A DNA stretch of 64,000 nucleotides from Polyangiales bacterium (GCA_041389885.1 JAWKRB010000006.1:259101-323100); one strand, 5' to 3'; shown: positions 45,577-48,148, counted from the stretch's first letter. The notes: generated from the sequence alone by a model not told the origin. Translations and numbers: made by a program.

Positions 45577-46107
45577 TCAGCGCGCTGTGAAGAGGTGCTC
45601 CCACTCCCTCGGGAGCGGAGAGCCCAGGTAGGCGCCGGCCTTCTCGACGTCGGGGAGCATGAAGGTCACCGTCCCCATCGCCGCCGTGCGCCCGCCCTGT
45701 CGAAGCGTGACGTCGAGCGCGACGATGTTGCCGTTGTGCGCGCCGATGCTGGCCCGCGCCTCGACCTCGACTCCGACGCGCACCGGGCGAAGAAAGCGGA
45801 TGTTCAGCGAGGTGGTGAAGCCCATGCGCCCCAGCAACCCCACCAGCGCCCACCCCGCGACCTCGTCGGCGAGGGTTGACTGCAGGCCGCCGTGAAACAC
45901 CCCGGGAGGACCCTCCCAGCCCTCGGGCGGAGTGAAGCGGGTGACGACCGCGTCGCCGTCGCGCTCGAAGCGTAGCCGCATGCCCACAGGGTTGTTCGGA
46001 CCGCATCCGAAGCACCGCTGCTCGGTGCCGAAGGTGTGCGGGTCCAGCGCGACGACCTCGCCGGCGTGCGGATGCGCGGCTGCGTGAGGATGCTTGTGCG
46101 GGCTCAT
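45577..46107 (-). CDS. PaaI/4HBT-type hotdog-fold thioesterase with His-rich N-terminus
   Basis: ATG at 46107 with AAGGGA RBS (alternative start at 46125). Hotdog motif FHGGLQSTLADEVAG. Confidence 0.65.
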   Translation of the reverse strand: MSPHKHPHAAAHPHAGEVVALDPHTFGTEQRCFGCGPNNPVGMRLRFERDGDAVVTRFTPPEGWEGPPGVFHGGLQSTLADEVAGWALVGLLGRMGFTTSLNIRFLRPVRVGVEVEARASIGAHNGNIVALDVTLRQGGRTAAMGTVTFMLPDVEKAGAYLGSPLPREWEHLFTAR

Positions 46108-46210
46108 CGCCGGATCCCTTATCATCCCGAGGGCCCCATCGGCCTCGAGGTGACCCCGCGCCACGCGAAATTTGCGGGCCAGGAAGGCTCGCGGGGAGCC
46201 CTCACGGGCT

Positions 46211-46254
46211 TGACGCGCCGCGTTGCCATCACTAAAACTGAATGGCCATTCAGT
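46211..46254 (+). promoter_or_regulatory. Putative promoter (-35 TTGACG, 17-bp spacer, -10 TAAAAC) overlapped by a perfect 18-bp palindrome ACTGAATGGCCATTCAGT
   Basis: Palindrome at 46237..46254 read directly. Sits in a locally AT-rich island inside a ~72% GC genome, 47 bp upstream of the acyl-CoA dehydrogenase start. Confidence 0.55.
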
Positions 46255-46300
46255 GCGCAGGGCGGCTGGTACTCTGCGCCACTTTCGGAGGTGATTCCCC

Positions 46301-48148
<1,848 letters not shown>

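Follow-up and report, generated by a model that had tools for sequence, protein, structure and literature searches.

A putative FadR/YsiA-type operator at the promoter of a long-type acyl-CoA dehydrogenase gene in a Polyangiales bacterium

Results

Genes and promoter elements at the locus

The window considered here is the whole stretch of DNA that was analysed, 64,000 nucleotides (64 kb) from a Polyangiales bacterium (GCA_041389885.1 JAWKRB010000006.1:259101-323100), the G+C content of which is 66-77% throughout. The features of interest are a divergent pair of genes and, between them, a palindrome that is set into a putative promoter:

45577-46107, minus strand: divergent 4HBT hotdog thioesterase gene (Pfam 4HBT, E 3e-11)
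46210-46215, plus strand: -35 hexamer TTGACG of the putative ACAD promoter, read from the sequence and conserved in orthologs
46233-46238, plus strand: putative -10 hexamer TAAAAC, read from the sequence
46237-46254, no strand assigned: candidate operator palindrome ACTGAATGGCCATTCAGT, a perfect 9+9 inverted repeat of 18 bp, read from the sequence
46238-46253: 16-bp inverted-repeat core CTGAAT-GGCC-ATTCAG, inside palindrome ACTGAATGGCCATTCAGT
46287-46291, plus strand: ribosome-binding site GGAGG, 9 nt before the GTG start, read from the sequence
46301-48148, plus strand: gene for a 615-aa long-type acyl-CoA dehydrogenase (ACAD) with a GTG start, from the ORF list and Pfam

The original prediction had assigned these genes to a long-type, FadE-like ACAD and a divergent thioesterase, and the Pfam domains confirm both calls. 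Specifically, the ACAD contains Acyl-CoA_dh N, M and 1 domains followed by Acyl-CoA_dh_C (PF12806), all four above their gathering thresholds, and it reached no equivalog model in NCBIfam; the thioesterase scored below the cut-off of the NCBIfam hotdog thioesterase domain model. Homologs of the ACAD number in the thousands in Myxococcota and other phyla, and are plentiful in Myxococcota MAGs (Polyangiales, Polyangiaceae, Labilithrix). In the closest loci, which are those with ACADs of 69-89% protein identity to that of the window, the downstream gene order is also kept, with a TPR protein, a HAD hydrolase, a ferredoxin, a PRK-family (phosphoribulokinase/uridine kinase) protein and TolB. On the upstream side, the closest relatives have a gene for a TPP-dependent enzyme (546-548 aa; TPP_enzyme N, M and C domains) divergent from the ACAD:

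L001:1149-3518, L003:6166-8000 and L004:6056-8000: regions of relatives compared with window 45577-46300

The TPP enzyme resembles a 2-hydroxyacyl-CoA lyase or an oxalyl-CoA decarboxylase. In one of these loci (L001) the 4HBT thioesterase comes after the TPP enzyme gene; the window has no TPP enzyme gene, and its thioesterase faces the ACAD directly.

A perfect 18-bp palindrome had been reported upstream of the ACAD, and we read it at 46237-46254, ending about 46-47 bp before the GTG start. It is unique in the window, with ACTGAATGGCCATTCAGT remaining single-copy even when 3 mismatches are allowed (expected 0.01). Perfect 18-bp palindromes as a class are not rare here (6 in the window versus 1.2 in mononucleotide shuffles), a count that can be cited for regarding the sequence as a product of chance. 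Against this, ACTGAATGGCCATTCAGT is the sole A/T-rich perfect 18-bp palindrome of the window, and 0 of 200 shuffles yielded one; it is conspicuous because the surrounding G+C content is uniformly high. The five other palindromes, at window positions 643, 1523, 30095, 30532 and 49582, are all G+C-rich (for example TGAGCCCCGCGGGGCTCA), and the excess of such G+C-rich palindromes may have its source in CG-rich codon or dinucleotide structure.

With respect to the promoter, the hexamers TTGACG and TAAAAC are separated by a 17-bp spacer, and the last two bases of TAAAAC are the first two bases of the palindrome, in agreement with the earlier description of an inverted repeat starting inside the -10 element. 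The sequence and spacing of TTGACG-17-TAAAAC are likewise as first described, and its start was placed one base late, at 46211 rather than 46210. The description of this element as sigma-70-like stands in part. It agrees with the sigma-70 consensus at 9/12 positions, but our sigma-70 scan of the window, for which 16-18 bp spacing and a -10 hexamer with A at position 2 and T at position 6 were stipulated, did not call it as a promoter because its -10 hexamer lacks the T at position 6. Nevertheless, as the -35 hexamer and a CTA at the -10 position are conserved in orthologs, we interpret TTGACG-17-TAAAAC as the putative ACAD promoter, with a weak -10 hexamer. The transcription start predicted on this basis lies at about 46245, inside the palindrome. 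The GGAGG ribosome-binding site is kept in the related loci L001 and L006. As for the divergent gene, about 130 bp separate the thioesterase start from the site, and no second site is found there; this distance renders control of the thioesterase geometrically less likely, and its co-regulation by the palindrome is possible.

Conservation of the site upstream of ACAD orthologs

The intergenic DNA of the ACAD orthologs with 69-89% identity diverges save for a block of the form CTTGACGCG-N15-CTAnnnACTGAAnnnCnATTCA, such that the -35 hexamer and CTAnnnACTGAAnnnCnATTCA are the only conserved intergenic elements in this alignment. All 7 orthologous upstream regions in the alignment have the CTTGACGCG block unchanged, and sequence farther upstream diverges. 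At the -10 position the aligned relatives have TACCAA or TAACGA, with CTA invariant, and in many orthologs, including more distant ones, the -10 hexamer reads TAnACT, the ACT of which corresponds to the first three bases of the palindrome.

A metagenome scan added 80 orthologous ACAD loci. Among the 70 distinct upstream regions with enough sequence, 49 contain TGAAT-N4-ATTCA with at most 1 mismatch, and in the orthologs that carry it the centre of the site is located 24-193 bp before the ACAD start codon (median 83). Outside the ACAD upstream region, ACTGAATNNNNATTCAGT (at most 2 mismatches) was found in a single copy in 886 kb of ortholog loci; this lone copy (L053:198-215, CAAACTGAATCGCCATTCAGTGAT) is near a contig end. 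A position weight matrix (PWM) of 22 columns was built from 43 distinct orthologous sites, and its symmetrised consensus is AGACTGAATGGCCATTCAGTCT, which means that the window site equals the consensus core. The window site scores 34.8 bits with this PWM, versus -1.1 for the next best position in the 64 kb. The outer base of the half-site is C in 64% and A in 34% of the orthologous sites, and C in the window. Moreover, the 4-bp centre varies (GGCC, CGCC, CACC, CGCG, GAGC and others) between arms that are fixed, which is the pattern expected of a dimeric DNA-binding protein.

Because it is conserved before the ACAD orthologs, the site is beyond what chance would produce. The notion that the palindrome plays no part in regulation, being a chance sequence or a dispersed repeat, can draw on the number of palindromes in the window and on a MAG in which perfect copies of the motif lie beside non-lipid genes (see below). 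It is contradicted by the conservation data, given that the position of the site is kept before orthologs of many lineages, and by the strong tie of the motif to beta-oxidation genes, and we accord it next to no weight.

The same alignments bear on whether the palindrome could act at the level of RNA, by folding into a hairpin within the ACAD 5' leader transcript and so influencing stability or attenuation. As RNA, a 7-bp stem with a 4-nt loop could indeed fold about 47 nt before the start codon. Across 44 distinct sites, however, the four inner arm pairs are invariant, arm pair 5/20 is simply broken in 27 with essentially no compensatory change, and the arm covariation score is lower than that of column shuffles. 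This lack of covariation in the arms argues for a DNA site rather than an RNA hairpin. Further observations against a hairpin are that no terminator-like feature or U-tract was called at the palindrome, that the site has no Rfam match at E up to 1, that the predicted transcription start falls inside the palindrome, and that the motif is found in either orientation before divergent genes. We consider a hairpin function extremely unlikely.

Separately, one clade of ACAD orthologs (L026, L030, L032, L036, L040, L043, L044, L046, L056 and L065) is without TGAAT-N4-ATTCA. Its members have another conserved palindrome, TTGAYTC-N4-GARTCAA (for example ATTGACTCTAGAATCAAT), about 70-125 bp before the ACAD start, which suggests that a different regulator may have taken over the ACAD gene in this clade.

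Correspondence to the Bacillus FadR/YsiA operator

The boxes recognized by Bacillus subtilis FadR (YsiA) have the form WTGAATGAMTANTCATTCAN (PMC5397183). In the crystal structure of the Bacillus halodurans FadR-DNA complex, two TetR-family dimers are each seated on a 16-bp inverted repeat with a 4-bp centre; the two repeats of the Bacillus box are offset by 4 bp, so that a dimer of dimers is bound (PMC5397183). Each FadR monomer reads the 6-bp sequence ATGA(A/G)T, and the contacts to bases are made by Gly42 and Tyr45 in its recognition helix (PMC5397183).

The window sequence CTGAAT-GGCC-ATTCAG constitutes one such 16-bp inverted repeat, and its core half-site TGAAT and 4-bp centre are as in the FadR complex. 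No second inverted repeat is present in the window at a register shift of either +4 or -4 bp (ATGGCC...AGTGCG), and the window site would therefore represent a single-dimer version of the operator. A 22-bp Bacillus-type double box, ACTGAATGA-N4-TCATTCAGT, does occur before the ACAD orthologs of L035 and L037 (0 mismatches) and L050 (1 mismatch), which ties the single and double architectures to one target gene. Given a single repeat here versus the double boxes of Bacillus, affinity or stoichiometry may differ.

Genes associated with the motif in other genomes

A search for the motif elsewhere had been proposed as a way to define a regulon. We scanned a genome collection with the query ACTGAATSSSSATTCAGT and obtained at least 120 loci, which are examples rather than a census; the window itself has no second site. 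Among the matches listed, at least about 45 are from Myxococcota, and in high-GC genomes the centre is almost always SGCS. The genes found beside the motif, again among the matches listed, include long ACAD orthologs (L099, L102, L104, L108, L129, L141, L187), other ACADs (L107, L140, L142, L116), MFE-2-type dehydrogenase/hydratase-2/SCP2 proteins (L094, L113, L115, L159 and others), ETF (L106, L122, L138, L183, L190), thiolases (L096, L111, L145, L182, L126), a 3-hydroxyacyl-CoA dehydrogenase (L191) and a family III CoA-transferase (L154). Sites thus precede beta-oxidation genes in related Myxococcota genomes, where the motif appears to mark a beta-oxidation regulon. The Bacillus FadR regulon of Matsuoka et al. 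(2007) reportedly comprises the same beta-oxidation functions as are marked by the motif here.

This gene context also bears on whether the site could serve as operator for a dimeric helix-turn-helix regulator of an unrelated kind (MarR, GntR, ArsR/SmtB or LexA-like), with TGAA-N6-TTCA in common by coincidence. The arrangement TGAA-N6-TTCA is similar to the cores of ArsR/SmtB 12-2-12 sites, CTG-N10-CAG is similar to LexA boxes, and no regulator adjoins the ACAD. Nonetheless, the genes that carry the motif are those of beta-oxidation and not of metal or SOS responses, the recurrent regulator neighbours are all of the TetR family (among the matches listed), and the half-site and spacing fit the solved FadR complex exactly; a regulator of another family is in our estimation very unlikely. 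Two specific candidates were discarded: the ArsR/SmtB-like TGAA-N6-TTCA on gene context, and LexA (CTG-N10-CAG and the LexA box of M. xanthus) on the beta-oxidation gene context and on mismatches at several core positions.

Matches beyond the Myxococcota fall into several sets. In Acidobacteriota, perfect sites (GACTGAATGGCCATTCAGTGTAT) were found at L127, L136, L155, L160, L168, L185, L098 and L204, in Ca. Angelobacter, Terriglobia and Terriglobales; L185 carries the label Ca. Limnocylindrales. These sites precede a conserved protein of about 397 aa without a Pfam match. The L098 site also lies before a 203-aa protein without a Pfam match, and short ORFs on the opposite side in L136, L155 and L160 cluster with that protein. 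At L087 (Ca. Acidiferrum), a motif site is directly adjoined by a TetR_N gene. Evidently, the motif is in use in Acidobacteriota too, partly on genes without annotation.

In MAGs of Actinomycetota (L092:85, L114:2036, L130:1529, L199:5719), the 18-mer is the core of a 28-bp perfect palindrome, AGTTCACTGAATGGCCATTCAGTGAACT. This palindrome lies between divergent genes for the alpha subunit of a Rieske ring-hydroxylating oxygenase and an S9 peptidase in L114 and L199, and one of these two genes is seen in L092 and L130. As part of a longer, different palindrome that is probably another regulator's operator, the Actinomycetota copies were set aside as irrelevant.

A further MAG, CAZCUX01 (L131, L177, L178, L188, L189, L195; 61-64% GC), contains six perfect copies of ACTGAAT-SSSS-ATTCAGT. 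They adjoin NikR, a thiamine-binding protein and unannotated ORFs, not lipid genes. These copies, which may represent either a dispersed repeat or another large regulon, were likewise set aside as irrelevant. The label of this MAG, Enterobacterales, is doubtful at such a G+C content.

Finally, matches from low-GC Clostridia/Lachnospiraceae share GCAAAACTGAATGCCCATTCAGTTGCAC, with a GGGC/GCCC centre (L091, L093, L101, L118, L120 and L123, as well as L134, L150, L151, L164, L172 and L201). The gene concerned encodes a conserved MFS transporter (about 380 aa); GCAAAACTGAATGCCCATTCAGTTGCAC lies within its 5' part or immediately ahead of it, and these copies most likely reflect coding-sequence conservation unrelated to FadR.

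Candidate regulators

The regulator had been expected to act in trans. An HMM built from the candidate regulators described below detected no TetR or fadR gene in the 64-kb window. Likewise, with a crude TetR HMM based on the TetR(B), QacR and AcrR N-termini, almost no TetR genes were detected within 6 kb of the orthologous ACADs, with rare exceptions. The absence of a TetR gene from both the window and the vicinity of orthologous ACADs bears out the expectation of regulation in trans. Regulators recurring as neighbours of the motif were, among the matches listed, of the TetR family only, and two types were distinguished:

L086:4601-5257 and L167:303-965: type A TetR (YsiA-type FadR ortholog), with TetR_N and TetR_C_4 'YsiA-like' domains
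L146 (Polyangiaceae), L137 and L203: type B TetR, with a TetR_C_24 domain, at most 24 nt from perfect sites

The type A proteins exceed the Pfam cut-offs for both TetR_N (58 bits) and TetR_C_4 (68.7 bits). Against the PDB they match B. subtilis FadR (1VI0/3WHB) best, at E 1e-34, and then B. halodurans FadR (5GP9) at 8e-31; the hit that follows is far behind, at 3e-16. They have every residue of the recognition helix GVADGTIYLYFK in common with B. subtilis FadR. The best NCBIfam model is the FadR equivalog NF053878 at 165.7 bits, which is under its 200-bit cut-off, and the next family scores 70 bits. Orthologs of type A with 67-99% identity are common in MAGs of Polyangiales, Polyangiaceae and Myxococcales, and are annotated by JGI as 'TetR/AcrR family fatty acid metabolism transcriptional regulator'.

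A version of the motif, GTGACTGAA(T/C)-N4/5-TTCA, is present at or just before the annotated start in 6/8 fadR loci (L086, L167, L206, L207, L208, L210), about 8 nt after a TTGAC(G/T)-17-N6 promoter, and this placement just after the fadR promoter indicates autoregulation. Moreover, fadR and other motif loci occur together in one genome, both in JAEUKI/GCA_016793325.1 (L207 with L140 and L153) and in Sandaracinaceae JAIBCE (L167 with L117). Look-up of the assemblies closest to the window (GCA_963853115.1, GCA_016792845.1) did not find a fadR locus; from its occurrence in relatives, we infer that fadR is present in the window's own genome.

The type B gene is divergent from a gene for a PEP-utilising-enzyme mobile domain protein. 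It is conceivable that this TetR_C_24 paralog, instead of the YsiA-type ortholog, binds the site and occludes the promoter in the same way, as type B genes are found within 24 nt of perfect sites at all three loci, the Gly and Tyr with which FadR touches bases are retained in their helix-turn-helix VGTGTFYLYF, and FadR structures are among their top PDB matches (E about 3e-9). The type B proteins are, however, far less FadR-like than type A (E 3e-9 versus 1e-34), their adjacency is explained equally well if type B genes are themselves FadR targets, such loci number just three among the matches listed, and the gene beside type B is not a lipid gene. Type B may accordingly be either a target or an alternative binder of the motif, and we judge it improbable as the regulator of the ACAD.

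Discussion

A model for control of the ACAD promoter

The original prediction had viewed the palindrome as the operator of a dimeric repressor of the TetR, FadR or MarR type. Comparison with related genomes and solved structures supports this view and narrows it to a TetR-family repressor of the FadR/YsiA kind, for which binding is predicted. We consider it likely that a YsiA-type FadR dimer, encoded in trans, binds the palindrome, blocks initiation at the ACAD promoter and is released by long-chain acyl-CoA. The starting points of this model, which are the site, its conservation, the match to the FadR repeat, the make-up of the regulon and the autoregulated FadR orthologs of Myxococcota, come from direct analysis. 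Specifically, one FadR dimer would set its recognition helices on the half-sites CTGAAT and ATTCAG, with the 4-bp centre between them. Since the site runs from within the -10 hexamer across the predicted start at about 46245, the bound dimer would cover both and keep RNA polymerase from initiating the ACAD transcript.

With respect to release, it is known for B. halodurans FadR that the distance between the recognition helices grows from 38 to 49 Angstrom when ligand binds (PMC5397183). By the same route, fatty acids activated to acyl-CoA would provide a ligand for the C-terminal domain, and occupancy of this domain would push the recognition helices apart. The repressor would then leave the DNA, and the ACAD would be transcribed together with the other motif-bearing genes of beta-oxidation.

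Significance

Our literature searches found no description of a FadR/YsiA-type regulon in myxobacteria. The switch itself is already known from Firmicutes, and it is most likely that the present analysis extends it, unsurprisingly, to myxobacteria; the understanding of how such switches work is unchanged. What the comparison shows is that the FadR/YsiA recognition code, as judged at the level of sequence, reaches from Firmicutes to Myxococcota, and probably also, on motif evidence, to Acidobacteriota. A concrete candidate regulator and effector are thereby assigned to a conserved promoter element of Polyangia-type myxobacteria, which are little studied and mostly uncultured, and the PWM is ready for use in annotating beta-oxidation regulons in these genomes.

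A broader reading, which we put forward tentatively and hold to be rather unlikely, is that Myxococcota, and apparently Acidobacteriota, use a minimal one-dimer FadR operator (a single 16-18-bp repeat with an SGCS centre), that other lineages keep the two-dimer box before the same ACAD, and that TetRs of the YsiA and TetR_C_24 types may share the motif. If true, this would provide a natural series of operator architectures, and possibly a two-regulator circuit, for one recognition helix across distant phyla. The occurrence of single and double repeats before orthologous genes also offers a simple system for the contribution of the second FadR dimer.

Comparison with known systems

Among myxobacterial regulators, the isovaleryl-CoA-dependent AibR of M. 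xanthus resembles the system proposed here in being a TetR regulator of acyl-CoA metabolism with an 18-bp palindrome as binding site. AibR has ACCTACCG-N2-CGGTAGGT as its operator and requires its ligand for DNA binding (PMC5389471). AibR was excluded because of this operator, and both the operator sequence and the logic of AibR are unrelated to the window site.

A survey of proteobacterial regulons describes FadR of the GntR family and the TetR-family regulators PsrA and FadP for fatty acid degradation, with Myxococcales unmentioned (PMC5343134). These regulators have the same physiological role as that proposed here, but belong to other protein families or subfamilies and recognize other motifs; a GntR-type FadR was not found beside the motif among the matches listed. 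The FadR proteins of Thermus thermophilus (3ANG/3ANP) and Sulfolobus acidocaldarius (PMC6449355) are, like the predicted regulator, TetR-family repressors of fatty acid degradation that are released by acyl-CoA. The T. thermophilus structure 3ANG is among the PDB matches of the candidate regulators, and the similarity of these two FadR proteins to the candidates is far weaker than that of the Bacillus proteins (E 5e-12 versus 1e-34). The T. thermophilus and S. acidocaldarius FadR operators are not known to contain TGAAT-N4-ATTCA.

The closest known counterpart is FadR of Bacillus (PDB 1VI0, 3WHB, 5GP9, 5GPC), from which the present system differs in several respects. The Bacillus box comprises two repeats, whereas the window has a single perfect one, in which the centre is G+C (SGCS) and the outer base is C rather than A; the host here is a high-GC, Gram-negative myxobacterium; and, unlike in Bacillus, the fadR genes of the myxobacterial loci studied do not sit within a fad operon. 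In common with Bacillus, the half-site core is TGAAT and each dimer would be served by a 16-bp repeat with a 4-bp centre, fadR itself has such a site over its promoter, as do genes for beta-oxidation (ACAD, ETF, thiolase, 3-hydroxyacyl-CoA dehydrogenase), and the Myxococcota orthologs have an identical recognition helix together with a YsiA-like C-terminal domain.
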